Shown piece after piece: positions 1-61,181 of a stretch of 64,000 nt of DNA. The notes under the pieces are model-generated. The model saw only the letters and a list, made by a program, of their open reading frames with translations, did no database searches and was not told the DNA's origin. Both the position numbers and the translations under genes were made by a program. The stretch is from an uncultured Armatimonadia bacterium. Its GTDB lineage: Bacteria > Armatimonadota > Zipacnadia > Zipacnadales > UBA11051. Where the stretch lies: NCBI GenBank assembly GCA_964390495.1, contig CAYMIN010000013.1, forward strand, positions 28,081 to 92,080, in the 5' to 3' direction. Numbering within the stretch: the first letter of the stretch is position 1; each line of letters opens with the position of its first letter.

Positions 1-866
1 GGGAGTTGCGCCAATTGGAGCAGAAGGCTGAAGACCTGGCCGGGGAGATCTGCTCGGACTTGAGCGCCTGGGACAAGGTGACGCTGGCCAGGCACGAGCG
101 GCGCCCCCATTCCTCCGACTACCTCAGAGCCGTCTTTGACGACTTCCTGGAGCTCCATGGCGACCGCCGCTTCGGTGACGACAGGGCGGTCACCACCGGC
201 CTGGGGTTCCTGGAGGGCCGCCCGGTGGCGATCATCGCCCAGGAGAAGGGCCGCACCGCCGCCGAGCGCCGCGAGCACAACTTCGGCATGTCCCGGCCGG
301 AAGGCTACCGCAAGACCATGCGGCTGATGCGGCTGGCCGCCCGCGTCAAGCGCCCCATCATCGCCCTGATTGACACCCCGGGCGCTGACTGCCTCGAAGC
401 GTCGGAAAGTCGCGGCATATCCGAGGCGATTGCCGCCAATCAGCGCGACATGTTCTCTCTGCCGGTGCCGATAGTCTGCGCCATAATCGGCGAAGGCGGC
501 AGTGGGGGCGCGATTGGGATCGGCGTCGGCGACCGGCTCTTGATGATGGAGCATGCCTACTATTCGGTGATTACTCCTGAGGCCTGTGCCGCGATCTTGT
601 GGCGCGATGCCTCGCTGCGCGAGGCAGCGGCCCAAGCCTTGAAGCTGACCGCCCAGAACGCCAAGCAGATGGGCGTCATTGATGCCATCATCCCGGAGCC
701 CGTCGGCGGTGCCCATCGCAATCCGCAGGCCGCCGCGGCCAATCTCAAGCTCGCCTTGCGGGAAGCCCTGGCCGCGCTTGCAGGCATTGCGCCCGAACAA
801 CTGCTGCAGCAGCGCTATGCCAAGTTCCGCCACATGGGTGCTCCTGAGGGCCTGGCGGAGAGCTGA
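1..866 (+). CDS. accA: acetyl-CoA carboxylase carboxyltransferase alpha subunit, 5'-truncated at window edge
   Basis: ORF 6..866 aligns to AccA from about residue 40 onward (ARHERRP...FLEGRPVAIIAQEKGR...GEGGSGGAIGIGVGD). The N-terminus lies upstream of the window. Confidence 0.9.
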   Translation, partial: ELRQLEQKAEDLAGEICSDLSAWDKVTLARHERRPHSSDYLRAVFDDFLELHGDRRFGDDRAVTTGLGFLEGRPVAIIAQEKGRTAAERREHNFGMSRPEGYRKTMRLMRLAARVKRPIIALIDTPGADCLEASESRGISEAIAANQRDMFSLPVPIVCAIIGEGGSGGAIGIGVGDRLLMMEHAYYSVITPEACAAILWRDASLREAAAQALKLTAQNAKQMGVIDAIIPEPVGGAHRNPQAAAANLKLALREALAALAGIAPEQLLQQRYAKFRHMGAPEGLAES

Positions 867-931
867 TACGGCGCCCCGCGGCAAAACCAAAGGACTGCAA
901 CTGACGCCGTCGCAGTCCTGAGTATTGATAC

Positions 932-1020
932 TGGTGCCGGAGGTCGGATTCGAACCGACACGGGGTTTGACCCCCGCTGGATTTTGAGTCCAGTGCGTCT
1001 GCCAATTCCGCCACTCCGGC
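932..1020 (-). tRNA. tRNA-Leu(CAA), type II with long variable arm
   Basis: The reverse complement folds as a tRNA. Acceptor GCCGGAG/CUCCGGC. Anticodon stem CUGGA/UCCAG with loop CUCAAAA, giving anticodon CAA. Variable arm CGGGGGUCAAACCCCG. T-arm GUCGG-UUCGAAU-CCGAC. Discriminator A and an encoded CCA. Confidence 0.9.
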
Positions 1021-1112
1021 AGTTGTGCCCGCGGCCCATCGGGGCACGCTACCAGTATATGGAGCCGAGCGGTGGATTGTCAAGCGCGCCACCGATCCGC
1101 CCAGTCGGTACT

Positions 1113-1141
1113 TGGCAGTATGGACATTGTCCGTTTTATTG
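1113..1141 (+). promoter_or_regulatory. candidate sigma70-like promoter upstream of sppA
   Basis: TTGGCA, a 17-nt spacer, then TTTATT about 35 nt upstream of the sppA start. An AAGGTG RBS sits 8 nt before the ATG at 1175. Hexamer matches are weak. Confidence 0.25.
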
Positions 1142-1174
1142 GGTTGACACACTCGGCAAAGGTGAAAAGCGATC

Positions 1175-2308
1175 ATGGGAACTGATAATACTACGCCACA
1201 ACCCGATCGGCCGGCAGCTCCGGACCGGGGCGCGCAGACCCCCCAGCCGCCTCAATCTCCAGCATCGTCCACCTCGCATTATGGTAGCGGCCAGCCGCCG
1301 CATGGCCCTCAGCCGCCCTCAGGAGGCGGTCGTGGCGTCATAACTGTGATAATCATCGTCCTGATCCTGGTGGGCCTGGGCCTGGCTAGCATTATCGGCC
1401 TGGCGCTGTTGGTCAGTTCGATCACGGATACCAAGTCCTCGGGCCTGGCGCTGGGTGACAAAGTCGGTGTGGTGATGGTGGAGGGCGTGATTATGTCCGG
1501 TGGCCGCGCCTCCCCGATATTCGGCGGGCCGGCGGGGTCCCGCGCGATCATGGCCGACATCCGCGCCGCCAAGCGCGAAAGCGACATCAAGGCCGTGGTG
1601 CTATATGTCAACAGCCCGGGCGGCTCCGCGGCCGCTTCACAGGCCATCTATAAAGAAGTCGCCGCCCTCGCCGAGAAGAAGCCGGTTATCGCCGCGATGG
1701 ACGATGTCGCGGCCTCGGGCGGCTACTATGTCGCCTGCGCCGCTGACAAGATCATGGCTAACGGCTCCACCATGACCGGCAGCATCGGTGTCATCATGTC
1801 CGGAATTGCCTACTACGGCTTGATGGACAATATTGGTGTGGACGACCACACCATCACCAGCGGCAAGTACAAGGACATCGGCTCGCCCTGGCGTCCAATG
1901 GAGCCGGATGAGAAAAGGCTGCTCCAGGGACTGGTGCAGGATGTTTATGACCAGTTTGTGGACGCGGTGGCTGAGGGCCGCGACATACCCCGGGAGAAGG
2001 CGCTCAAGCTTGCTGACGGCAGGATTTTCACCGGTCGCCAGGCCCTCGCCCTCGGCCTGGTGGACAAGCTGGGCTCCTATTATGATGCCGTCGAGTTAGC
2101 CGCCAAGGAAGCCGGCATCAAGGGCGAGCCGAAGGTCAAGACGTTCGGTGCCTCCAAGAGCATCTGGGGCGAGCTGTTCGGCACCGAAGAGCTTTTTCCC
2201 TTGCCTTCCCGGCGTAGTTTGCTGAATCTGACCGGACCGATGCTGATCGAGCCTTTCACTTACAATAATCTGGCCCTGCAAGCCCTCCCGTTGCGGCCCG
2301 TGCCCTAA
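1175..2308 (+). CDS. sppA: signal peptide peptidase SppA (36K type, S49 family) with Pro-rich N-terminal extension and one TM helix
   Basis: S49 motifs NSPGGSAAAS, AASGGYYVACAADKI and GSIGV. The N-terminus has the hydrophobic stretch VITVIIIVLILVGLGLASIIGLALLV. Confidence 0.85.
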   Translation: MGTDNTTPQPDRPAAPDRGAQTPQPPQSPASSTSHYGSGQPPHGPQPPSGGGRGVITVIIIVLILVGLGLASIIGLALLVSSITDTKSSGLALGDKVGVVMVEGVIMSGGRASPIFGGPAGSRAIMADIRAAKRESDIKAVVLYVNSPGGSAAASQAIYKEVAALAEKKPVIAAMDDVAASGGYYVACAADKIMANGSTMTGSIGVIMSGIAYYGLMDNIGVDDHTITSGKYKDIGSPWRPMEPDEKRLLQGLVQDVYDQFVDAVAEGRDIPREKALKLADGRIFTGRQALALGLVDKLGSYYDAVELAAKEAGIKGEPKVKTFGASKSIWGELFGTEELFPLPSRRSLLNLTGPMLIEPFTYNNLALQALPLRPVP

Positions 2309-2350
2309 GCTCACAAGCCACCCACCAGGTCCCGGCCAGGAGCCTTTGCT

Positions 2351-5014
2351 GTGGCGCACAAGTTGCTCTTAATAGACGCAAATAGCCTCATTCACCGGGC
2401 CTTCCACGCCCTGCCGCACCTGAGCACCGCCGACGGCCAGGCGACCAATGCCGCCTTCGGTCTCGCCCAGATGCTCCTGGCCCTGCTTGAGGAGCAAGCG
2501 CCCGATGAGGCCGTCATGGTCTTCGACGCTCCCGGCCCAACCTTCCGCCATGAGATGTACGACCAGTACAAGGCGAACCGTCCCGAGATGGACCAGGAGC
2601 TGGCCTCCCAGTTTCCCATCATCCGCCGCCTGGTACAGGCGATGGGCCTGGTAATGCTAGAGCAGGCCGGCTATGAGGCTGATGACCTTATTGGGGCCCT
2701 GGCCGCTCGCGCGCATAACGAAGGTTACGAAACCGTCATAGTCAGCGGCGACCGCGATCTGCTGCAACTGCTTGACGAAGGTGTCCAGGTCCTGATTACC
2801 ACGCGCGGCACCAAACAGGTGACCGCTTACGATGTGGACAAGTTCACCGAGCAATACGGCATAACACCGGCCCAACTGGTTGACCTCAAGGCCCTTGCCG
2901 GCGACACTTCCGACAACATCCCCGGCATTACCGGTATTGGCGACAAGACGGCCTCCGGTCTGCTGGCCGAATACGGCACCGTCGAGGCAGTGCTTGAGCA
3001 CACCGCCGACCTCCCCGAGGCTGTCCGCTCCAAGCTGGCCGGCAACGAACAGGAGGCCTTGTTGTGGAAGCGTCTGGCCTCCATCCAGTGTGACGTGCCG
3101 CTGGAGCAGCAGGCCGACGATTTGGCCTGGCGCGGCCTCGACGGCGAGGCCCTGCGCAAGCTCTTGGCCGAGCTGGAGTTCACCAGCCTGCTGAAGCGCT
3201 TGCCCGCTTCCCAGGCCTCGACCACCGAGGGCACTGTAGCCGCCGCCGATGCTGACAGTCTCGCCGGGATATGCGACCGCGCCGAGCAGGCCGGCGCCCT
3301 TTTTGTTGTGCCGACTGCGCATGGTGATGCCGAGGCCCTGGCGCTTGCTGCCGGCCCGGACCTCGCTGTCAGTCTCCTGCTTCCGTCGGCCTCCGCCGCA
3401 GATACCCAGCAGGCCGGCCTTTTCGCCGACGCAGACCAGGATAGCCCTCTGCCCGAGGCCTTGGTCCAAGTCCTGGGCGATCCGCAGCTAGCCATCAGCG
3501 GCTGCCGGCTTAAGGACCTGGACAATTCACTGCGCCGCCGCGAGGTTGGCGTCCGTAATCTGGCTTTCGACGCCGAGATCGCCTCTTACCTGCTGGCACC
3601 GCAGCGTTCCGACCACGGCATCGGCGTGTGGGCGGCCCAGTATCTCGGCTGGGACCTGCCCGAAACCGACGCCGCCGACGCCTACGGTATGCCCGCCTGG
3701 CAAGCCCGCGGCTGCATCGAGGCTCTGGCTACGGCGCAGTTGCAGGCCCGGCTGCAGCGCGACCTCAAGCAGCAGGGGATGCTGGAGCTGTTCACCGATG
3801 TCGAGATGCCGCTGGTATCGCTCTTGGCCAAGATGGAGCGGGCCGGTATCGGCGTGGACCGCGAGCGCCTGCAGGAGGCCGGTCGCGAGCTTTCCCGAAT
3901 GATGCAGGAGCTGTCCGCGCGCATCTTCGAGCTTGCCGGCGAGGAGTTCAACCTCGACTCCCCCAAGCAAGTCGGCGAGGTCCTATTCGAGCGCCTTGAG
4001 CTGCCCAAGGGCCGCAAAACCAAAACCGGCTGGTCAACCGCAGCTAGCGTCCTTGAGGACCTTGCCCACGAGCACGAAATCGTGGCATTGATCTTGGAGT
4101 ACCGCGAGTATGCCAAGCTGCGCAGTACCTATGTTGACGGCCTGGAGCGCCAGATTGACCCCGCCACCGGCCTGATTCACACCAGCTTCGAACAGACCGT
4201 CACCGCCACCGGCCGGCTCTCCAGCCGCAGCCCTAATCTCCAGAACATCCCCATCCGCACCGAGTGGGGCCGGCAGATCCGCAGTTGCTTCTGCAGCGGT
4301 GTCGCCGGCTACAGTTTCATCTGTGCCGACTATTCCCAGATCGAGTTGCGCATCTTGGCTCACCTCTCCCAGGACCCGACGCTCCTGGAGGCCTTCGCCA
4401 ACCACGAAGATATCCATACCTACACCGCCACTTTGATCTTCGACTGTGGCCGCGACGAGGTGGACTACCGGATGCGCAGTGCGGCCAAGACCGTCAACTA
4501 CGCCGTCTTGTACGGCATGGGTCCCAGGGCTCTGGCTGACGCGCTGGATATGAGTCTTCAGGAGGCCAGGGAGTTTATCGAGAGCTACCATCAACGCCTC
4601 CCGAAGGTCCAGGAGCTCTTGAGCGCCACGCTGGAGCAAGCCCGGCAGACCGGCTATGTGAGCACCATCATGGGGCGCCGCCGACCGGTTCCCGATCTCG
4701 ATGCAGCCAATGCCCGGGCCCGCAGCTATGCCGAACGCGCCGCAACCAATACCCCGATGCAGGGCAGCGCGGCCGATCTAGTCAAACTCGCTATGCTCAA
4801 GCTTGATGCCGCCTTGCAGGCCGATTTCCCCGAGGCCGAGATGCTCCTGCAGGTCCATGACGAGATCGTCTTGCGGGCGCCTGCTGAAAGCGTTCCCGAT
4901 CTGGCCGGCCTCGTCAAGGAGGTGATGGAGAGCGCCTACCCCCTCAGCGTACCGTTGACCGTGGATGTCTCCGTAGGTGACAACTGGCGTGACGTGCAAC
5001 CTTTGCAGGAGTGA
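2351..5014 (+). CDS. polA: DNA polymerase I
   Basis: 887-aa ORF with a GTG start. N-terminal 5'-3' exonuclease/FEN domain (LLLIDANSLIHRAFHAL, GDRDLLQL). C-terminal family A polymerase motifs (DYSQIELRILAHLS, RSAAKTVNYAVLYG, QVHDEIVL). Confidence 0.92.
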   Translation: MAHKLLLIDANSLIHRAFHALPHLSTADGQATNAAFGLAQMLLALLEEQAPDEAVMVFDAPGPTFRHEMYDQYKANRPEMDQELASQFPIIRRLVQAMGLVMLEQAGYEADDLIGALAARAHNEGYETVIVSGDRDLLQLLDEGVQVLITTRGTKQVTAYDVDKFTEQYGITPAQLVDLKALAGDTSDNIPGITGIGDKTASGLLAEYGTVEAVLEHTADLPEAVRSKLAGNEQEALLWKRLASIQCDVPLEQQADDLAWRGLDGEALRKLLAELEFTSLLKRLPASQASTTEGTVAAADADSLAGICDRAEQAGALFVVPTAHGDAEALALAAGPDLAVSLLLPSASAADTQQAGLFADADQDSPLPEALVQVLGDPQLAISGCRLKDLDNSLRRREVGVRNLAFDAEIASYLLAPQRSDHGIGVWAAQYLGWDLPETDAADAYGMPAWQARGCIEALATAQLQARLQRDLKQQGMLELFTDVEMPLVSLLAKMERAGIGVDRERLQEAGRELSRMMQELSARIFELAGEEFNLDSPKQVGEVLFERLELPKGRKTKTGWSTAASVLEDLAHEHEIVALILEYREYAKLRSTYVDGLERQIDPATGLIHTSFEQTVTATGRLSSRSPNLQNIPIRTEWGRQIRSCFCSGVAGYSFICADYSQIELRILAHLSQDPTLLEAFANHEDIHTYTATLIFDCGRDEVDYRMRSAAKTVNYAVLYGMGPRALADALDMSLQEAREFIESYHQRLPKVQELLSATLEQARQTGYVSTIMGRRRPVPDLDAANARARSYAERAATNTPMQGSAADLVKLAMLKLDAALQADFPEAEMLLQVHDEIVLRAPAESVPDLAGLVKEVMESAYPLSVPLTVDVSVGDNWRDVQPLQE

Positions 5015-5202: not shown

Positions 5203-6846
5203 ATGACTTGGGACTTTGATAATACCGACAAGGCAAAGAAGCCGCAGCAAGTAGCTGAATCGTCGTCTGAAGAAGCCTCCGAAACAACCGGCGACGCTCT
5301 GGAAGCCGCCCTCGACCAGGCCTTGCCCGTTCACGTCGAGAAGGGCGATATCGTCACAGGCGTCGTCGCCGCGGTTGATGACCAGTTCGTCAGCGTTGAC
5401 ATCGGCACCAAGTACGAGGGCCTGATTCCCGCCTCCGAGTTTGCCGGTCCTGATGAGATGCCGGCCTTGGACGACAAGATTGAAGTTGCTGTTGTCAAAG
5501 TTGATGATAAAGAGAGCGTGGTCAGGCTGTCCAAGCGCAGGGCCGACTACGAGCGCGTCTGGAACCGCCTCACCGAGGCTGCCGAAAGTGGCGAAATCGT
5601 CGAGGGCATCGTCACCGAGCGCGTCAAGGGCGGATTGCGCGTGGACGTGGGCATGCCGGGTTTTGTGCCTGGCAAGCATGTAGCCACCCGCAACCTCCGT
5701 AACCTCGAGCGTTTTGTCGGCCAGTCGCTGCGCCTGCGCGTGCTCGAAGCCAACCGCGAGTCCAAGAAGCTGATCCTCTCCCACCGCGTGGCGGTCGAAG
5801 AAGAACGCGAACGCCGTCGCCAGGAGACCCTCGATCAGCTCGAAGAAGGCGTGGTCTGCGAAGGCAAAGTGCGCAGCCTCACCAGTTACGGCGCTTTTGT
5901 TGACCTCGGCGGCGTTGACGGGCTGCTCCACATCTCCGAAATGGCCTGGACACGTGTCAAGCACCCCTCCGAAGTGCTCAAGGTGGGGGATACGGTTCGC
6001 GTTGCCGTCCTGGACATTGACCGCGAGAACGACCGTATCTCACTTTCCAGGCGACAGATTCTGCCCGATCCCTGGAAGGCAGCTGCGCCCAATATCCGCG
6101 TCGGCAGTGTTCTCAAGGCGCGCGTCACCCGCGTGGTGCGCACCGGCGCCTTCGCGCAGTTGCTGGACCACGAAATCGAGGGCTTCATCCCCATATCCGA
6201 AATGAGCGCCAAACGCATCTCTGAGCCCTCCGACGCAGTCAGCGCCGGCCAGGAGGTTGATCTCAAGGTCATGGACATGCGCATCAAGGCCCGGCGGATG
6301 ACCTTGAGCCTCGTCGCCGCCGACCAGGAGAAGGAGCGCCGCGAGTACCAGCAATACATGGCCAACCAGGAACAGGCTAAGGTCACTCTCGGAGATCAGT
6401 TCGGTGACGTTCTGCAGCAGGCCGCCGTCGCCGCTGAAACCGAACCCGCGGCAGAACCACCATCCCAGCAAGAGCCCGAGCCGGAACCAGTCGCGGAGAC
6501 AGTGGAGCAACCGGCTGATCAAGAAACCACAGAAGAGCCCGACGCACCAGCGGAGCCAGAAGCGCCTGAAGAGCCAGCCGAGGAGCCCGAAAAGCCAGCC
6601 GAAGAACAGCCCGAAGAGGAGCCCGAAGAGGCAGCCGAAGAACAGCCCGAAGAACAGGCCGAAGAAGCAGCCGAAGAGCAGCCTCAAGAGGACCCTGAAG
6701 AAGCAGCCGAAAAGCCCAGAAAGGCCAAGCAAGCCGCCAAGCCGAAGAAAACCGCAGCCACCAAGAAAGCGAAAGAGCCCAAGAAAACCAAAAAGGCCAA
6801 GGCCGCGGCGGACAAATCAGACCAAGCCGAAGAGGCGGATGAGTAG
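5203..6846 (+). CDS. rpsA: 30S ribosomal protein S1 (four S1 domains) with ~150-aa acidic (EEQPEE repeats) then lysine-rich C-terminal tail
   Basis: Four S1 OB-fold repeats (GDIVTGVV..., GEIVEGIVTERVKGGLRVDVG, GVVCEGKVRSLTSYGAFVDLGG, GSVLKARVTRVVRTGAFAQL). A GAAGGGAG RBS lies upstream. The tail is low-complexity, P/E-rich then K-rich. Confidence 0.85.
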   Translation: MTWDFDNTDKAKKPQQVAESSSEEASETTGDALEAALDQALPVHVEKGDIVTGVVAAVDDQFVSVDIGTKYEGLIPASEFAGPDEMPALDDKIEVAVVKVDDKESVVRLSKRRADYERVWNRLTEAAESGEIVEGIVTERVKGGLRVDVGMPGFVPGKHVATRNLRNLERFVGQSLRLRVLEANRESKKLILSHRVAVEEERERRRQETLDQLEEGVVCEGKVRSLTSYGAFVDLGGVDGLLHISEMAWTRVKHPSEVLKVGDTVRVAVLDIDRENDRISLSRRQILPDPWKAAAPNIRVGSVLKARVTRVVRTGAFAQLLDHEIEGFIPISEMSAKRISEPSDAVSAGQEVDLKVMDMRIKARRMTLSLVAADQEKERREYQQYMANQEQAKVTLGDQFGDVLQQAAVAAETEPAAEPPSQQEPEPEPVAETVEQPADQETTEEPDAPAEPEAPEEPAEEPEKPAEEQPEEEPEEAAEEQPEEQAEEAAEEQPQEDPEEAAEKPRKAKQAAKPKKTAATKKAKEPKKTKKAKAAADKSDQAEEADE

Positions 6847-6879
6847 GCCGACTGTTGTAGCGACAGGGACGAAGCCGCC

Positions 6880-7476
6880 ATGACTGTTCTCGGCATAGTT
6901 GGGCCGATGGGCTCCGGCAAGACCTTCGTGCTGGAGGCGCTGCGGCGGCTCGGAGCCGTGACCATCAAGGCCGATGACCTATCCAGAGAGTTGCTGCAGC
7001 CGGGCGCCGAGCTGACGGCCAAGGTCAGGCAAGCCTTCGGCGACGAGTGCTTCGACAGCCAGGGCCACCTGCTGCGGGGTAAGTTGGCCGAGTTGATCTT
7101 TGCCAGCGAGCCGGCCCGCCAACGCCTCAACGCCATTATGTATCCGGCGATGCGGGGTCTGCTGCGGGAGCGCCTTGGGCAATTCCGCAAGCTAGCTACC
7201 CCGCCGGCGCTGGTGGCGGTGGAGGTCGCCAACCTCTACGAAATGGGCGCCGCCGGCCTGGTTGATTATGTCCTGAGTGTCACTGCTTCCCGGCCCGTGC
7301 GCGAACAGCGCATCCGCAGCCGCGACTATCTGAGTGCCGCCGAAGCCAGACGCCGTCTCGACGTTCATGCCGCCGCCGGCTTGGACGATAACCCGGCCGA
7401 TTTTGAGATCAGCACCGACAAAAATGGAGGCCAACTACAGGCGGAAGTAGAAGCCTTGTACCGACGCCTCACTTAG
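6880..7476 (+). CDS. coaE: dephospho-CoA kinase
   Basis: N-terminal P-loop GIVGPMGSGKT. Its length of about 198 aa and its CoaE-like sequence fit the usual position after S1 and PolA. Confidence 0.85.
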   Translation: MTVLGIVGPMGSGKTFVLEALRRLGAVTIKADDLSRELLQPGAELTAKVRQAFGDECFDSQGHLLRGKLAELIFASEPARQRLNAIMYPAMRGLLRERLGQFRKLATPPALVAVEVANLYEMGAAGLVDYVLSVTASRPVREQRIRSRDYLSAAEARRRLDVHAAAGLDDNPADFEISTDKNGGQLQAEVEALYRRLT

Positions 7477-30320: not shown

Positions 30321-30340
30321 TCACTGTCCGCGATGCACTA

Positions 30341-30502
30341 GTGTCGTGTCCCAGAAACAACTTCACATAATTCGAATAGCTCACCAAACGCGTGCCTCGA
30401 CCTGCCCTGAGCAACGTCGCAGGGCAGCCCGAGTCACCATCGGCAAGCTCCACGCTAAACACATACAATGCGACAGCATTCTCAGCTTCCAGCCCGAGGT
30501 CG
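30341..30502. repeat. ~160-bp intergenic repeat, copy 1 of a direct-repeat pair flanking the ilv operon (contains conserved-structure hairpin 30401-30428)
   Basis: Shares GTGTCGTGTCCCAG, TCACATAA, AATAGCTCAC-AAAC-CGTG-CTCG, a hairpin, and AATGCGACAGCATTCTCAGCTTCCAGCCCGAGGTC with 36817-36941. Confidence 0.6.
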
Positions 30503-30599
30503 TTCGAGCCGAACTCCCCAACTGAGCATCCTCAAGTTGCTCTGACGCCGTATCGAGGCCCTCTAAGAGATAACCATGCTTCTGCGACGCAACACTAGC

Positions 30600-36802: not shown

Positions 36803-36816
36803 TATACTACACCCAA

Positions 36817-36941
36817 GTGTCGTGTCCCAGGCATAACCTCACATAACCCCAATAGCTCACTAAACCCGTGGCTCGGCCTGACCTGCGTCTCGTGCAGGTC
36901 AGGTGAGAATGCGACAGCATTCTCAGCTTCCAGCCCGAGGT
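36817..36941. repeat. copy 2 of ilv-flanking direct repeat (hairpin 36876-36902 with compensatory substitutions relative to copy 1)
   Basis: See 30341-30502. It lies between the ilvD start and the stop of the DUF1028 gene. Confidence 0.6.
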
Positions 36942-36951
36942 CTTCCGCGAC

Positions 36952-37668
36952 TTACCACTCCCGCATGGCCTTGAGCATATCGAATATGCGGCGTAGTTCC
37001 GCGATAGGGTCTTGGTGGTCATCCACTCGCAGGTCCACTACCCGGTCGGTAAGCCCGGCGGTGCCGCCGCCCTGACGGACGACTAGCAGAGCCGCCGATT
37101 GCTGCCCTCTGGTGTCACCGCCGGCGGCCTGGCCTGCTTCCAGGGCCTGCATCAGCCGCTCGCCCAGTACCTGTCCCGCTGCGGCCTGGAAGCTTGCGGC
37201 CATAGCCTCAACTACTTGCGGCCCGGCCAAGATGTTGCCCTGGGCCGAGAAATCCTCCCCGCAGACGCCTCCGGCCCATTGGGTACATTCGCCGCCGGTA
37301 TGATTCGCCGTGCGGCTCTGGTGGTCAATGATTCCCACCTGGCGCAGTTCGGGCCTCTCATCTGCCGCCAATATCTGCTCCAGGGCCTCTTGCGGCGGCA
37401 CTCTCGTGCCCAGCAAGCGCAGGGCTTCCGGCCCCAATTCGGGATTCACCGCTGCCTGGGTCGCCACCGCTCCGACTCCGGCCGCAGCCCAGGGCACGAC
37501 GCTGCCGACCGCGAAGTACTTGGACTGCACGGCCACTCCCAAGTCGCGGGTCTCGCCGTCACGTGCTACTATCGAGAAGGTTCCGGTAGGCGCCATCTCC
37601 ATGCCAGGGGCCTCGCCCATGAAGCGGATAGGATACTCGTTGGGTACAAAAAAGCCTCGTGTCCACAA
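36952..37668 (-). CDS. DUF1028-family protein (Ntn-hydrolase-like)
   Basis: GTFSIVARDGETRDLGVAVQSKYFAVGSVVPWAAAGVGAVATQA is the characteristic DUF1028 N-terminus, with Thr as the putative nucleophile after processing. The start may be MEMAPTG. Confidence 0.65.
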   Translation of the reverse strand: MWTRGFFVPNEYPIRFMGEAPGMEMAPTGTFSIVARDGETRDLGVAVQSKYFAVGSVVPWAAAGVGAVATQAAVNPELGPEALRLLGTRVPPQEALEQILAADERPELRQVGIIDHQSRTANHTGGECTQWAGGVCGEDFSAQGNILAGPQVVEAMAASFQAAAGQVLGERLMQALEAGQAAGGDTRGQQSAALLVVRQGGGTAGLTDRVVDLRVDDHQDPIAELRRIFDMLKAMREW

Positions 37669-38039
37669 TGGGACAAGAGGCTTGTTAGCTCCTGCGGTAC
37701 CACCCAGATTCCCGGCGCACGCTTGAGTTGCACCGGACTCTTTGGCGCAATAACGGGCGCACCCGGTCGGGCCTATTGCTATATGTTCGGCCCGACGGCT
37801 CGGGGGCGACCTTCGGCGGTCCGCTGGTACCGTCTCTCAGCACGACGACGGCTCTCTGTTCCTGGCGGAGTCCGCTTACTCCTCCCCTTCTTCGCCGTAA
37901 GCAGTATTCAGATTGTCTCCAGTATAGTACACCGCCTCAGATTCGTCAAGCGCCCCTTGCTTCGAGCCGCATTATTGCCCAACGCACCGGCGGGGTTTTG
38001 TTGAGCAGTCACGCAAATCTTCGGCGACTGGAGCTCCAG

Positions 38040-38230
38040 CGCGACAGGTTGTGTCGTTAGTAATGGCGGGGCCGGTCCAGCCGTTGTCGTGGTTTTTCGT
38101 GCCATTGTAGGGGCGCACGGTGTGCGCCCGCGCCGTTGCCGTTGTTCCCTCTCCCCCTGGAAGAAGGCTAGGGTGAGGGCTGCCGTTGTGTTGCCCCTGC
38201 CTTTGGTGTCCCTTTTTTCCCTGGCAGCAG
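38040..38230. repeat. composite repeat copy D (TGTGTCGT, GGGCGCAC-GGT-GTGCGCCC hairpin, CCCTCTCCCCC...GGGTGAGGG)
   Basis: A perfect 8-bp hairpin at 38112-38130. CCGTTGCC flanks as in copies A and B. It lies in a 630-bp ORF-free gap. Confidence 0.5.
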
Positions 38231-40386: not shown

Positions 40387-40536
40387 GACTGGCGGCTGTG
40401 GCTTCTCATTGACAGCCGGTCAGGACAATCCACCTGACGCGTGGCTCGGGCTTCCAGCCCCAGGCGGTTGCCATCCAGCGCTATTACATATTCCCTCTCA
40501 CTCACCAACAATGCAATCTGACAACTTGCTACCGAG

Positions 40537-43982: not shown

Positions 43983-44867
43983 ATGAAGAATCCGAAGCCC
44001 GGCTGCCGCTTTGTAGTCTTTGCCGACGTGCATTATGTGGTTCCGCCCCATCCGCGGCTGTCATGGCCGCAATTGGTCGAGAAGCTCCCTGAGCAGCCGC
44101 GCGTGACCGAGCTGATTGACACGATGCTGCCGATGGCTCTGGAGCAGGTCCATGCCGAGTTGCGGCCTGACTTCATTGTCTATGCGGGCGACCAGGTCAA
44201 CGTCGGCTGGGACGAGGAGGGCCTCGCCAACCAGCACGGCTTCCGCAACCTACTGGCCGAGGCTAGCTCTGCATCTTTCCCTCAATCCCGTGGGTCGGGG
44301 TTCCAGCCCGACAGTGATGAAGTGCCTGTCTATCTGGTCTATGGCAACCACGACCGCCCTCGCGAGCGCTATCTGGAGTTCTATGGCGAGACTATCTACA
44401 GCTTCACCTGCAACGGCTGCCATTTCGCCGTGCTCGACAGCGGCGTCATGCACCCGGAGGACGACTACGACCCTCCGGAAATCTTCACGACCGGGCTGGA
44501 CGAATTGCAGAACATGCTCGATCGAGCCGCCGGAGCGCCGGCAGCGGTCCTGCTGCATTTCTACATCTACCCGACCGACATAGTGGGCTACAGCTATCCG
44601 GCCGCGGCGGAGGCCATCGCGATGATCGAGAGCTATTCCCGCCCCGTACCGGTGCTCAACGGCCATTTGCACGATGGCCGTGTGGACATCGCCAACGGCC
44701 AGCTCTATTTCACTGCCCGCTCCTTCATCGAGTCGCCATTCTGCTTCTACCTGCACGAGTTGAGCGAAGACAGCCTGCAGATTGACGAATATATGCTCGA
44801 TTTCAACACCGGCAGATGGTCGCGATATCGCATGTGTGCTTTCGATCTCAGTCCGGCTTCGGCGTAG
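43983..44867 (+). CDS. calcineurin-like metallophosphoesterase, carrying an in-frame REP-like insertion
   Basis: FVVFADVHYV, YAGDQVN, VYGNHDRPRE, LLHFYIYP and NGHLHDG are the metallophosphatase motifs. Start at the ATG 43983; the ORF track's 43842 start overlaps the upstream gene. Confidence 0.75.
   Translation: MKNPKPGCRFVVFADVHYVVPPHPRLSWPQLVEKLPEQPRVTELIDTMLPMALEQVHAELRPDFIVYAGDQVNVGWDEEGLANQHGFRNLLAEASSASFPQSRGSGFQPDSDEVPVYLVYGNHDRPRERYLEFYGETIYSFTCNGCHFAVLDSGVMHPEDDYDPPEIFTTGLDELQNMLDRAAGAPAAVLLHFYIYPTDIVGYSYPAAAEAIAMIESYSRPVPVLNGHLHDGRVDIANGQLYFTARSFIESPFCFYLHELSEDSLQIDEYMLDFNTGRWSRYRMCAFDLSPASA
44268..44315. repeat. REP-family element (AATCCCGTGGGTCGGGGTTCCAGCCCGACAG) inserted in-frame inside metallophosphoesterase CDS
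   Basis: Near-identical to the intergenic copies at 45063-45098 and 46165-46198. It encodes the extra peptide SFPQSRGSGFQPDS between conserved blocks. Confidence 0.5.
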
Positions 44868-44929
44868 TTGACGTTCTTGGGCATCTTCTTGTCGTTGCCG
44901 TTGAATCGTGTTTGGGGGCCGGCGTACCC

Positions 44930-45170
44930 GCTGCGAAGCAGTGGATGAAAACGCTTCGCAAGGCGAAGCGTTGAGGGCTGGCCCAGCCGTTATCCTTAAG
45001 TCTTCTGGAGGGGCCGCATACGAGGCGGAAGCCCTAGCTTCCGCCGAGAATCCAGCCCAGCCGTTATCTCGCGTGGGTCGGGCTTTCCAGCCCGACAGCC
45101 GTTGCTGCTTTGCCTTTGCCCTTTCTCCCTTTGGGAAAGGGGGCGGGGGTGAGGGGGCCGTTGCCTCAGG
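44930..45170. repeat. composite repeat copy B (REP hairpin 45077-45096 + CCCTTTCTCCCTTTGGGAAAGGGGG + CGGGGGTGAGGGGG)
   Basis: It fills the gap downstream of the metallophosphoesterase gene. An artefactual ORF (44908..) reads through it. Confidence 0.5.
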
Positions 45171-45306
45171 ACCGGCCCGCGCCCAATCCCAGCCCCCAAC
45201 TTATCTAGACCCTAACTTCCAATCACAACGGTCCGCAGCTTCGTTTGTCCAAATATCTACATGCCCACAGGCCCAGCCTAGCGCCACACCAAAACCGCCC
45301 AAGGAG

Positions 45307-46023
45307 ATGGTATTCTTGCATTGCCGACTCAATCCGGCCCTCTTGGCCCTGGCTCTTGGCTTGTGCTTGGCCGCCTGCAGCGGCGCGGCGGAAACCGAGA
45401 AGCTGAAGATCACACTTAGCCTGACGAGTAAGAGCGGCGACTCCGGCAGCAGCACCGACACCGCCTGGGCCATGGACGGAACCTGGGCCTTCAGTCCAGC
45501 GCCGCGGCAGTTCTCCCTGCAGGTCAATTCCAGGTACACCAGGTCCGACGACGGCGCCAAGTTCGACCGCCTCAAAACCTGGTGGCGCTACCTCTGGGAG
45601 GACGTGCCCGAGACCGAGTGGCGACCGCTGTTTCTGGTCTCGACTGAAGGCGATCATGGCCTTGACCAGTTGCACACCCTAGCTGCTTTCGGGTATCGCA
45701 AGAGCCACGATTGCGGCTTCATCGAACTGACTGCGGGGGTTTCCAAGGACCTGCAGACCTCGGAGGCGTGGGTTGGCGACATCGGTGCGCTGGTCAGTTA
45801 CGAGCGCCAGTGGGGCAAGCTGTCGTGGGGGCTGAATCCACAAGGCGAGCTGGGCGTTCTGGGGGATGTGCGTTACCGCGACGACCGTTTCCGCTACAAC
45901 GTGGACACGGATTTGGGCTACAAGATTGGCGACCGTTTGCGCGCGACGTACCAGCTTACTTTCGGCAACACCACCGCGGATTCCCGTCGCACGCAGTTCA
46001 TCGGCATAACCTACGAGCGCTGA
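45307..46023 (+). CDS. lipoprotein / small outer-membrane beta-barrel-like protein (DUF481-like?), unknown function
   Basis: The AAGGAG-adjacent ATG at 45307 gives MVFLHCRLNPALLALALGLCLAACSG (lipobox LAAC). The protein is beta-rich with alternating aromatics. The longer 44908 start traverses repeat DNA and is rejected. Confidence 0.5.
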   Translation: MVFLHCRLNPALLALALGLCLAACSGAAETEKLKITLSLTSKSGDSGSSTDTAWAMDGTWAFSPAPRQFSLQVNSRYTRSDDGAKFDRLKTWWRYLWEDVPETEWRPLFLVSTEGDHGLDQLHTLAAFGYRKSHDCGFIELTAGVSKDLQTSEAWVGDIGALVSYERQWGKLSWGLNPQGELGVLGDVRYRDDRFRYNVDTDLGYKIGDRLRATYQLTFGNTTADSRRTQFIGITYER

Positions 46024-46029
46024 GGCCGA

Positions 46030-46232
46030 CCTGTCGTGTCTCGCTCAAAGACATGCCCGTAGCTCCGGCTTTCTTCGTCCACCTATCCCTCTTTGGATTC
46101 CCCCTTCCCTACCAGGCAAGGGGGTTAGGGGGTTAGGCGCCTTTGGCGTTGCCGTGCCCTTGCCAAGAATCCCGGGGGGCGGGCTTCCAGCCCGACGCCA
46201 TTGCCCTCGTAGGGGCGTCAGCCTGCCCAGCC
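46030..46232. repeat. composite repeat copy C between convergent genes (TGTCGTGTC, CCCTTCCC...GGGGGTTAGGGGGTTAGG, REP hairpin 46174-46198)
   Basis: Same modules as copies A, B and D but in a different order. It ends at the rel stop codon. Confidence 0.5.
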
Positions 46233-53635: not shown

Positions 53636-54478
53636 TCAATCCACGCTTGAGAGCGGATAGACTGCTACCTCGTAGGTGCCCGCCTTCACCGTCACCAGCA
53701 GGTAATGGTAAAATCCGCCGTTCTCGGGCTTTGCGTAGAGCGGTGCTCCTCCCCCAGCCGTAATGAAGTAGTCGATCTCGTCGCGCCGTGAGTGGTTATA
53801 GAGATGCTCGTGGCCCATGAATACCGCGCTCACCTTGTGCTTGGCAAACAAGGCGTGGAGGCGGTCGCGCAAGGGGATGTCCACATCCATGGAGGAGCCG
53901 CGGTGGCCGTCCACCGGAAACAGCGGTCGGTGCAGAGCCACAAAGATGAAGTCGGCATCCTTGGCCTGTGTCAGGTCATCCATCAGCCACTGCCACTGCT
54001 CCCCCTTGATGGTCCCTTCCTGGCCGGGGATCTCGCTGTCCAGGATGATGAAATGGCAGTTGGCGCGGTCGAAGGAGTAGCGGCGGGACTGGAAGTACTC
54101 CTCGAATATCCTCGCATTGGCGGTGGACCCCCGGATGTCGTGGTTGCCGGTGCTGAACGCCACGGGGATGTCACCGGCCATCTTCAGCGGCATCAAGGCC
54201 TCGAAGAAGCGGTAGTATTGCTGGCGGACGACCTGGGGATCGGTGCTGCCCTCGATGTAGTCACCGGTGCCGATCACGAAGGCCGGGTTATGCTGCACCA
54301 TGTTCTCCACCAGCCGGCGGGTGATGCCGAGGCGCTCATAGTTCGGGCCGGGGCGGCTGTCGCCGAATACCGCGAAGACCAGCTCATCATCCGCCGCCAG
54401 ACAGTAGGCGCTGCCAACAACCGCGACGAATGCCAGCAGTAAGACCAACGCCTGTGCTACCCGTGCGCGATTCATCAT
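53636..54478 (-). CDS. secreted calcineurin-like metallophosphoesterase
   Basis: Signal peptide. GDSRPG, GDYIEG, GNHD, the VALHRPLFP region and GHEHLY. Confidence 0.75.
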   Translation of the reverse strand: MMNRARVAQALVLLLAFVAVVGSAYCLAADDELVFAVFGDSRPGPNYERLGITRRLVENMVQHNPAFVIGTGDYIEGSTDPQVVRQQYYRFFEALMPLKMAGDIPVAFSTGNHDIRGSTANARIFEEYFQSRRYSFDRANCHFIILDSEIPGQEGTIKGEQWQWLMDDLTQAKDADFIFVALHRPLFPVDGHRGSSMDVDIPLRDRLHALFAKHKVSAVFMGHEHLYNHSRRDEIDYFITAGGGAPLYAKPENGGFYHYLLVTVKAGTYEVAVYPLSSVD

Positions 54479-59841: not shown

Positions 59842-60097
59842 ACGAGTTGTACTCCCACGGTCGGTGATGCTAGGTTGGGTTGTCCATTGCTAACAGCGCG
59901 AGATGATGGGGCCGAATGCCGCCAGCACCCTCGGGCTGCAAGCCCGAGACACACGCCGGTGGGCTTTGCGTGGAGGCTGTCAACTGCGCAGGCGAAACAT
60001 CAGGTCACGTGGCCGGGTTAGGCCGCGCATGCCGCCAACCTATCGCGGCTGAGCACGCCTGAGCTGCTAGCCGGTGACTGGGTGCCGTCGGCTCGGA

Positions 60098-60886
60098 CTA
60101 GGACTTGCGGATCGCGTCATAGTCAAGGCCGGCAGCGGCGACAGCGGCAGCCCAACTGCCGAAATTGCTCTCACGACTGGCCGCCTCCATCATCCCGCGG
60201 TAGCCCATGCGGCGCATGTTGCTATTATTGACCGACTTGCCCTGAGCGTGCAGGTTGCGGATGGTCGCGACGATTTTGTCCTGCGTCCAACGGTTGATTT
60301 TCCGGATTTTGGCGTAGTCAAGGCCGGCGGCTTCGATAGCGGCGCGCCAACTGCCGAAGTAGCGCTTGCTGCTGGCGGCCGAGACCAAAGCGCCGTGACT
60401 GTTTTTGGCCGCCTCGTGGCTCAGGTCCTCACCTTGGGCGTGGAGCTCCTGAATTTCCTCGATGATGCGCTGTTTGCTCCAGAAGCGGTGCTTGCTGATT
60501 CTCTCGTAATCGAGGCCGGCGGCGGCAATGGCATTGCGCCAACTGCCGAACATGCGGTCGTCAACGGCCACGACTACCAGATACTGGTGATTACGCTTGG
60601 CGGCGCTGTGAGAAAGGTCTTCGCCCTGGCGGTGGAGCCGCTGGATCTCCTGAATGATGCGTTCTTCCGTCCACTTGCGCTTGCGCTTGCAGACTTCTTT
60701 GGGGTCGAGGCCGGCTGCCCTGATAGCATCGCGCCAACTGCCGAAGAACTCGTCCTTGTAGGCGGTCGTCACCATGCCGCTGTAGCCGAGCTCGGCCATC
60801 CTGCGGGTGCTGAGGGAGTGGCCTGCCGTGTGCAGGTCTTCGATTGTCTGGATGATCTTTTCTCTCGTCCACTTCCGACGACTCAT
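60098..60886 (-). CDS. protein composed of four tandem ~65-aa 'homing endonuclease-associated repeat' (HNH_repeat-like) units; no nuclease domain
   Basis: Four repeats of (K/R)W(T/S).E.II..I..LH..GEDLS......N...L..AA....FGSW..AI.AAGLDY. The DNA shows about 198-bp periodicity (60106, 60304, 60502, 60700). The likely start is the ATG at 60886 after AAGGAG; the longer 60943 start overlaps the RBS. Confidence 0.65.
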   Translation of the reverse strand: MSRRKWTREKIIQTIEDLHTAGHSLSTRRMAELGYSGMVTTAYKDEFFGSWRDAIRAAGLDPKEVCKRKRKWTEERIIQEIQRLHRQGEDLSHSAAKRNHQYLVVVAVDDRMFGSWRNAIAAAGLDYERISKHRFWSKQRIIEEIQELHAQGEDLSHEAAKNSHGALVSAASSKRYFGSWRAAIEAAGLDYAKIRKINRWTQDKIVATIRNLHAQGKSVNNSNMRRMGYRGMMEAASRESNFGSWAAAVAAAGLDYDAIRKS

Positions 60887-61181
60887 TTTCTCTCTCGCTC
60901 CTTGTGGGCCTGCTAATTGACCATTAGAGTTAGAATGGCTCAAAAAACGCCTGCTGTCAAAGTAGGCGCTGCTCAGGGGGCGGCTCTGGGTCTTTGGCTC
61001 AAATTAAAAGGCCTGCCGATAGGCTGCCGACAGGCAACGCATCCCAACTGCCGATTCCGTCGCACCGACCCCGGACGGCACCAATAATATGATAGCAGTA
61101 CTGCACGTCACTGTCAAATCAAAGTGCGTAGATTCTTTTTGGTTAGACGCGCCGGCCTCGACATAGTTCGACGGTTTGGCA

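Follow-up and report, generated by a model that had tools for sequence, protein, structure and literature searches.

How a palindromic repeat that belongs to intergenic spacers can come to lie inside a protein-coding gene and leave that gene intact is the question raised by a 64-kb stretch of contig CAYMIN010000013.1 (positions 28,081 to 92,080; hereafter the window), which appears to derive from an uncultured bacterium related to the metagenome-assembled genome (MAG) CSMAG_1176 and to Candidatus Zipacnadia (Armatimonadota). The gene encodes a metallophosphoesterase of 294 amino acids (43983..44867, + strand), and the element is a 45-nt segment within it (44270..44314, + strand), which supplies 15 codons (residues A97–S111, ASFPQSRGSGFQPDS). 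Our analysis makes it very probable that this segment is a copy of a repetitive extragenic palindromic (REP)-like repeat, which was inserted in-frame after the split from CSMAG_1176 and has been tolerated as a passenger, with the enzyme intact and under purifying selection. A preliminary description had proposed that the segment is akin to nearby intergenic copies, that it lies between the GDQVN and GNHD motifs of the enzyme, and that it keeps the frame while adding about 14–16 residues, all of which is borne out below.

Among about 5.8 billion proteins searched, 16 relatives of the phosphoesterase were found. In the protein alignment, all of the 15 non-identical homologues (45–79% identity) have a gap of exactly 15 residues opposite ASFPQSRGSGFQPDS, and there is no other large indel in that part of the protein. 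The closest homologue, P0002, is encoded in a syntenic block of MAG CSMAG_1176 (GCA_030604405.1), in which the gene order heparinase-like, phosphoesterase, porin-like and RelA/SpoT is conserved. DNA alignment with this syntenic orthologue (L001 and L002) likewise reveals a clean 45-nt insert at 44270–44314, with boundaries ambiguous by 1–2 nt, and removal of the insert yields ...AEAS-SDEVP..., in agreement with the homologue consensus. The boundaries have at most ‘TG’ in common, and there is no meaningful target-site duplication. A tryptic peptide covering the insert is predicted to be, for example, GSGFQPDSDEVPVYLVYGNHDRPR. Translational bypass or frameshifting was considered and dropped, since the insert contains no in-frame stop, the reading frame is continuous, and recoding is not required.

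Gene calls on the contigs of five samples give the identical insert-bearing protein; the samples come from ENA (ERZ27256770 and ERZ27256773), Logan (SRR14699969 and SRR14699967) and JGI (3300017991). The window corresponds to ENA contig k141_826336, identical across the 20.9 kb compared. The presence of the same protein in five separate samples makes an assembly chimera at the insert unlikely. The preliminary description had also called the insertion recent. It postdates the split from CSMAG_1176 (dS, the synonymous divergence, is about 0.68), but it is only relatively recent, as all sampled contigs carry it.

Within the insert, the string GGGTCGGGGTTCCAGCCCGACAG occupies 44292–44314 and contains the hairpin core GGGTCGGGGTTCCAGCCCGAC (44292..44312, + strand, from the sequence and an RNA fold), the arms of which are at 44294–44299 and 44307–44312. 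The corresponding exact consensus 21-mer, GGGTCGGGCTTCCAGCCCGAC, was searched in a collection of species-representative genomes. It is present in 74 genome stretches, of which about 33 are from CSMAG_1176 and about 28 from Candidatus Zipacnadia MAGs (Armatimonadota), while the remaining matches are scattered over Planctomycetota, Poribacteria and others, a few single ones being possibly due to chance. We then built an nhmmer profile from 57 copies of other genomes, with none from the window; these are the 57 of 76 exact-core copies that passed a filter for CGT before the core. The best match of the profile in the window is the insert (44271–44319, E = 1e-9, 33.9 bits), and this match spans both the hairpin and the 5′ flank CTTTCCCTCAATCCCGT. 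A covariance model, which makes 93 hits in 444 kb of loci chosen for carrying the core, scores the insert (44272–44324) at 41.6 bits (E = 3.6e-7 over the 444 kb). Furthermore, a repeat finder places 44275–44312 in one family (D5) with 46159–46196 (82% identity over 38 nt), 40426–40463 and 22749–22786.

The window holds six copies of the family in all, every one on the + strand, and the five intergenic copies are each downstream of a + strand gene. Specifically, the copy at 45055..45108 (covariance model, 37.6 bits; nhmmer 45060–45101, E = 1e-7) lies in a 449-nt mosaic spacer 3′ of the phosphoesterase gene, and its segment 45063–45098 matches the core except for one mismatch and one indel of 1 nt; the copy at 46156..46208 (34.2 bits; nhmmer 46160–46206, E = 1.2e-7) lies between the convergent porin-like and RelA/SpoT genes. 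Two further copies are degenerate, one at 40423..40475 (28.4 bits, E = 4e-4; nhmmer 40429–40460, E = 2.8e-4) and one at 22768..22793, which is a weak match (nhmmer E = 9e-3) that also falls in family D5. The fifth, at 28201..28305, is split, with arms about 65 nt apart and another repeat module in the loop (nhmmer half-hits at 28201–28227, E = 3.7e-3, and at 28293–28305). The orthologous spacers of CSMAG_1176 likewise hold copies of the family, and the intergenic copies therefore appear, on sequence comparison, to predate the split from CSMAG_1176, with the gene copy specific to the lineage of the window.

These results also bear on the reading that the segment is a native lineage-specific loop, or an artefact of assembly, and resembles the intergenic repeat by coincidence. 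The genome is GC-rich, and the core 21-mer does occur in unrelated phyla as single hits that may be due to chance, such as one inside a flavin reductase domain of Streptosporangiaceae, both of which would favour coincidence. Against it stand the match to a profile made from other genomes, which extends over flank and hairpin alike, the extra sequence of exactly 45 nt relative to all homologues, and the recovery of the same protein from five separate samples. We consider a coincidental likeness extremely unlikely.

The copies have a common layout, ...GGC(T/A)TCC-CCAAAGAATCCCGT-[core]-TCCGTTGCC, and the usual arrangement includes a direct half-copy upstream, which often reads GCGTAGGTCGGGC. The consensus GTCGGGCT-TCC-AGCCCGAC forms an 8-bp GC-rich stem, within the 6–9 bp of the short imperfect palindromes (about 20–40 nt) by which REPs are defined. 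Across the 93 covariance-model hits, 93.6% of stem cells are paired and compensatory two-sided changes occur in 5 of 10 pairs, a result reached by 0 of 500 shuffles, in an alignment that was fitted to the covariance model and is hence tilted towards structure. The head CGTGG stands directly 5′ of the stem in all of the 57 aligned copies and in the gene copy, which agrees with the GTAG or GTRG/GTGG head of REPs, and is partly built in, the copies having been chosen for CGT before the core. The family is also, in the window and in the genome collection, of high copy number and mostly intergenic, downstream of unidirectional or convergent genes. The inverted doublets known as REPINs (REP doublets forming hairpins) are represented by a single adjacent inverted pair (L033, 3826–3878 + and 3883–3932 −) among the 93 hits. 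The features of a miniature inverted-repeat transposable element (MITE) are absent: the insert has 45 nt, its boundaries have no more than ‘TG’ in common, and there are no terminal inverted repeats of insertion-sequence (IS) type beyond the hairpin. No Rfam family covers the hairpin, the only Rfam matches in the window being a T-box leader and a tRNA, and the exact core sequence was not found in the literature searched. In head, stem, copy number, downstream position and mosaic arrays, the element matches the description of a REP-like palindromic repeat of the GTAG type.

Two observations concern the arrangement of the copies. In related MAGs, copies within one locus (for example L028, L037 and L051) are usually on one strand, as they are in the window between 22768 and 46208, which suggests that their orientation is biased with respect to transcription or replication. 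In split copies, namely that of the window at 28201–28305 and one in L001 at about 6870–6930, the arms are 40–65 nt apart and another module (..CCTGAGC..GTCGAAGGG..) lies between them, which suggests nested insertion into the hairpin loop.

The state of the host gene decides whether the insert has been tolerated or marks the decay of the gene, two outcomes that the preliminary description had left side by side. The product matches the Pfam family Metallophos (PF00149, E = 1.3e-9, above the gathering score), and Foldseek matches its structural model to purple acid phosphatase, Lmo2642, Rv0805 and GpdQ in the PDB (E about 1e-10). The features of a calcineurin-like metallophosphoesterase, that is, the DxH, GD, GNH(D/E), H and GHxH motifs and the fold, are all present. 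The metal-binding motif GDQVN lies 5′ of the insert (44187..44201, + strand; G69, D70, Q71 and V72 are invariant in the homologue alignment), and the metal-binding motif GNHD lies 3′ of it (44343..44354, + strand; G121, N122, H123 and D124 are invariant), with strand 116–119 immediately before it. In the alignment of 15 homologues, D15, H17, G69-D70, G121-N122-H123-D124, H192, H228 and H230 are invariant or nearly so, and every residue invariant across the homologues, including those of the metal-binding motifs, is kept in the insert-bearing protein. By the Nei–Gojobori method, the ratio of nonsynonymous to synonymous divergence (dN/dS) from the syntenic CSMAG_1176 orthologue is 0.19, with a dS of 0.68; it is 0.11 for each of the neighbouring porin-like and RelA genes. 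A second Metallophos gene in the window (53636–54478, − strand) was tried as an internal control and is uninformative, with 28% identity over a partial alignment.

The AlphaFold2 model of the phosphoesterase has a mean predicted local distance difference test (pLDDT) score of 87.2 and a predicted template modelling (pTM) score of 0.89. In the model, the insert forms a loop between helix 78–93 and strand 116–119, which ends in GNHD, and the sole segment with a pLDDT below 50, residues 103–110, is inside the insert, consistent with the surface-loop placement suggested at the outset. In the calcineurin-like fold, the metal ligands are located at the C-terminal ends of strands. Because the insert loop sits at the N-terminal end of the GNHD strand, it should face away from the dimetal centre.

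Gene decay would mean that the phosphoesterase has lost its activity, or is losing it, through the insertion, and that its gene is a young pseudogene still free of stops. A dN/dS somewhat above that of the two neighbours and the predicted disorder of the insert region are in line with such decay. However, the 294-codon reading frame is intact, the invariant residues are kept (GD, GNHD, H192, H228 and H230 among them), dN/dS is far below 1, the model is confident outside the insert, the insert is at the strand end away from the catalytic motif, and the same protein is found on every sampled contig. Decay is in our judgement quite unlikely. Tolerated insertion is favoured over it because the frame is intact, the invariant residues are kept, dN/dS is 0.19, and every sampled contig carries the insert.

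Taken together, the results can be arranged as follows for a tolerated insertion. The insert corresponds to the 3′ part (about 45 nt) of the REP-like repeat that populates the intergenic spacers of this lineage. A copy entered the phosphoesterase gene after divergence from the CSMAG_1176 lineage, at the connection between helix 78–93 and the GNHD β-strand, and would be translated as a 15-residue loop that is predicted to be disordered. The gene probably survived because the insert is 45 nt long, free of stops in the frame in which it is read, and placed in a permissive helix-to-strand loop. Within the protein, the element most likely has no role and is a tolerated passenger. In the gene, the hairpin has a 6-bp stem and a folding energy of −12.0 kcal/mol, versus −15.1 to −19.7 kcal/mol for the intergenic copies and the consensus (RNA fold); it is weaker because of one C>G change in the 5′ arm relative to the consensus, and the stem of the gene copy has begun to erode.

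How the copy moved is less certain. Mobilisation of a single-stranded hairpin by a HUH tyrosine transposase of the RAYT (REP-associated tyrosine transposase) type would account for the GT(G/A)G head as well as for the missing target-site duplication; it is our best guess, although one that may well be wrong. Alternatively, the repeat could have reached the gene by template switching, or by ectopic recombination with a copy close by, such as that 750 nt downstream. RAYT-like ORFs (open reading frames) were sought by phmmer with E. coli RayT and the RAYT-like ORFs of L081 and L074, in all ORFs of at least 70 amino acids over about 640 kb. All those found are in loci of Planctomycetota and Poribacteria (L035, L081 and L074), and those of L035 and L081, Planctomycetota loci with the same core, are flanked by repeats with the same stem. 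As a separate observation, the RAYT-like HUH transposase (MPNHVHVL ... YI) of these two loci, encoded in L035 by a − strand ORF (reverse complement 763–4431, about 1223 codons) and in L081 by a + strand ORF from 1659, is flanked by arrays of the GTCGGGC stem and is in one continuous frame with a large methylase-like ORF; the arrangement resembles a REPtron that has settled within a gene and left its frame unbroken.

Several points weigh against an in-frame insertion that is now under purifying selection. No RAYT-like ORF is present in the window or in the sampled fraction of CSMAG_1176 and Zipacnadia DNA. A degenerate pattern for the empty-site allele, AEASSDEVPVYLVYGNHD without the insert, has no match in metagenome contigs, so that mobility lacks direct observation, and the protein search contains no insert-free relative above 79% identity. 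The dN/dS of 0.19 spans the entire divergence from the orthologue rather than just the time since insertion. The AlphaFold2 model was computed from an input alignment of only 16 sequences, and how far the loop lies from the metal site is inferred from fold topology and the order of secondary-structure elements. Another pattern, which joins the 3′ arm of the repeat to the right flank of the phosphoesterase gene, gave 65 metagenome matches; none is a phosphoesterase homologue or has an upstream hairpin, and we set them aside as chance matches to a pattern that is too loose.

The same family is found inside other genes. Loci with the exact core were screened for long ORFs spanning the repeat, which were then checked against Pfam, and of the exact-core copies in the Armatimonadota clade, which number roughly 57, about five (in three genes) are intragenic. 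The clearest series is in MoaA (Radical_SAM and Mob_synth_C domains), in which the inserts all occupy a single site immediately N-terminal to the VKINVV strand. In CSMAG_1176 (L073, 2612–2664, − strand) the repeat translates to RGSGFQPD; in a Zipacnadia MAG (L013, 4353–4483, + strand) there are three tandem 39-nt repeat units; and a third copy is in L148 (1994–2046, + strand), which is from the same ENA assembly series as the window. In these three assemblies, in the order given, the inserts have 13, 53 and 25 residues (P0017, P0018 and P0019). They are extra residues relative to the solved S. aureus MoaA, and the next-closest homologues, with up to 68% identity, have no insert there. On reading of the sequence, a double change from T-A to C-G and two G-U changes maintain the pairing of the L148 hairpin. 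The MoaA inserts of L013 and L148 also hold a second repeat module, translated as PLPVGEGPGVRA, which matches the intergenic family of the window at 28308, 38136 and 45110. Three further cases, in which an ORF spans the repeat, are candidates: a heparinase-like protein in L015 and L020 (...ALSEVEGQPD..SRGSGFQPDS...), a glycogen-debranching enzyme (GDE) in L028 with two copies in reverse orientation (ESGWKPDPRE), and a methylase-like ORF of Planctomycetota in L052 and L081.

Such recurrence raises the possibility of exaptation, that is, that the insert is kept for a function, for example as an intra-operon RNA hairpin that affects how stable the mRNA is or how it is translated, or by forming a peptide loop with a new interaction, in a repeat family that may be adapted to life inside genes. 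The RGSGFQPD frame is used in the phosphoesterase, in MoaA and in the heparinase-like gene of the clade, as well as in the methylase-like ORF of Planctomycetota; the MoaA arrays differ by whole in-frame 39-nt units, the L148 copy keeps its pairing by double and G-U changes, and the stem covaries across the family. The agreement of frame in the clade is, however, 3 of 3, with p about 0.1, and other frames and reverse orientation occur too (EamA, L035 and GDE). The covariation among copies may also stem from subfamily structure. For the phosphoesterase copy in particular, the stem is weakened rather than preserved, no T-run or terminator-like feature follows it, and the loop is predicted to be disordered. 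Retention for a function is thus a very unlikely account of the insert. A terminator role was separately examined for the repeats and rejected: no T-run follows the copies, and terminator-like sites are no more frequent than in shuffles.

A broader proposal would be that the family represents REPs that are coding-competent and adapted to a lasting existence within genes, with selection on both peptide and RNA structure. It rests on four findings: the RGSGFQPD frame is common to three same-orientation genes of the clade, both mapped sites (in the phosphoesterase and in MoaA) are helix-to-strand connections, the MoaA arrays grow or shrink by whole 39-nt in-frame units, and the L148 copy keeps its pairing through compensatory and G-U changes. 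We regard this proposal as improbable. If it were true, this REP lineage might play a part in the evolution of mRNAs or proteins; unless it proves to be specifically adapted to coding sequence, the understanding of REP biology is unchanged.

Other repeats surround the insert. The spacer 3′ of the phosphoesterase gene (44868–45315) has 449 nt, versus 119 nt in the L001 orthologue. It is a mosaic of CGCTTCGC-AAG-GCGAAGCG, GGAGGGGCCGCATACGAGGCGGAAGC..GCTTCCGCC, the GTCGGGC hairpin and CTTTCTCCCTTTGGGAAAGGGGGCGGGGGTGAGGG, with linkers such as GCCGTTGCC between them. The second repeat family, at 28308–28353, 38136–38181 and 45110–45155, has the form TTGCC..CTCTCCC-NNNN-GGGAGAGG..GGGGTGAGGG. A longer repeat of about 130–170 nt is present in two copies (30340–30506 and 36816–36947), which are 83–95% identical, have hairpins of their own, and are unrelated to the family of the insert except for a common TTCCAGCCCGAG motif. 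Elsewhere in the window, there is a T-box leader (37666–37901, − strand; RF00230, 112 bits) directly upstream of a − strand ORF (36952–37668), and a tRNA gene (935–1020, − strand; RF00005, 60 bits). A 12-nt periodic repeat of GAA and CCN codons, which encodes an acidic Pro/Glu/Ala-rich segment, occupies 6532–6711 in the ORF at 5203–6846, and four diverged repeats of about 195 nt (60105–60783) lie in overlapping ORFs (60074–60943) that probably encode a repeat-domain protein.

The tolerated insertion adds an uncultured Armatimonadota-like lineage to the bacteria in which palindromic repeats have colonised genes in-frame, a phenomenon first known from Rickettsia and then from Opitutus, Thauera, Xanthomonas and others. 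It also provides two natural experiments, namely syntenic orthologues of one enzyme with and without a 15-residue loop, and a series of MoaA proteins in which one site holds 0, 13, 25 or 53 additional residues. In annotation, an insert of this kind can pass for an assembly error or a pseudogene, and in structure predictions it inflates the number of lineage-specific ‘novel loops’.

Among known systems, the GTAG/CGTC REPs are similar in plan. In that group, REPs have been described within ORFs, as single or grouped units that encode about 15–30 residues, and the head of the GTAG-20 family of Opitutus terrae is mostly GTGG (Di Nocera et al. 2013, PMC3733652). Like them, the present element is a short palindrome with a 6–9 bp stem and a GT(G/A)G head, of high copy number and mostly intergenic, 3′ of unidirectional or convergent genes, with an intragenic minority. 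Unlike them, it has a different stem and loop sequence, its Armatimonadota-like host is outside the survey in PMC3733652, and its copies are mostly single or accompanied by direct half-copies rather than arranged as inverted dimers. With the REPs and bacterial interspersed mosaic elements (BIMEs) of E. coli and Pseudomonas it has in common a GTAG-type head with a GC-rich hairpin, mosaic intergenic arrays (44868–45315 in the window) and the absence of target-site duplication, but the DNA sampled from this lineage yielded no RAYT, REPINs are rare (1 adjacent inverted pair among 93 hits), and the REPs of E. coli are essentially extragenic.

MITEs, including ERIC, Nezha, BOX and others, are likewise small non-autonomous repeats that can form in-frame fusions with host ORFs (PMC10969869); in contrast to the insert, with its 45 nt and at most 2 nt of boundary identity, they have 70–300 bp, the terminal inverted repeats of a parent IS, and target-site duplications. 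The parallel drawn in the preliminary description to the Rickettsia palindromic elements (RPEs) holds for behaviour, that is, in-frame insertion, and implies no membership of their families. In both cases, selfish palindromes stand in-frame in unrelated housekeeping genes and give rise to extra peptide segments, and for in-frame RPEs a predicted compatibility with protein conformation and function has been cited (PMC10969869; PMC3733652). RPEs of the RPE-1 type, however, are about 100–150 bp long, encode longer peptides and belong to Rickettsia-specific families, whereas the present unit has about 45 nt; nearly half of the copies are intragenic in some RPE families, versus about 5% of the sampled exact-core copies here; and Rickettsia is an obligate intracellular alphaproteobacterium, whereas the present host is Armatimonadota-like. 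An in-frame palindromic repeat in a gene is therefore a known phenomenon, established for the RPEs of Rickettsia and for GTAG/CGTC REPs, of which the phosphoesterase insert is a clean but ordinary new example.

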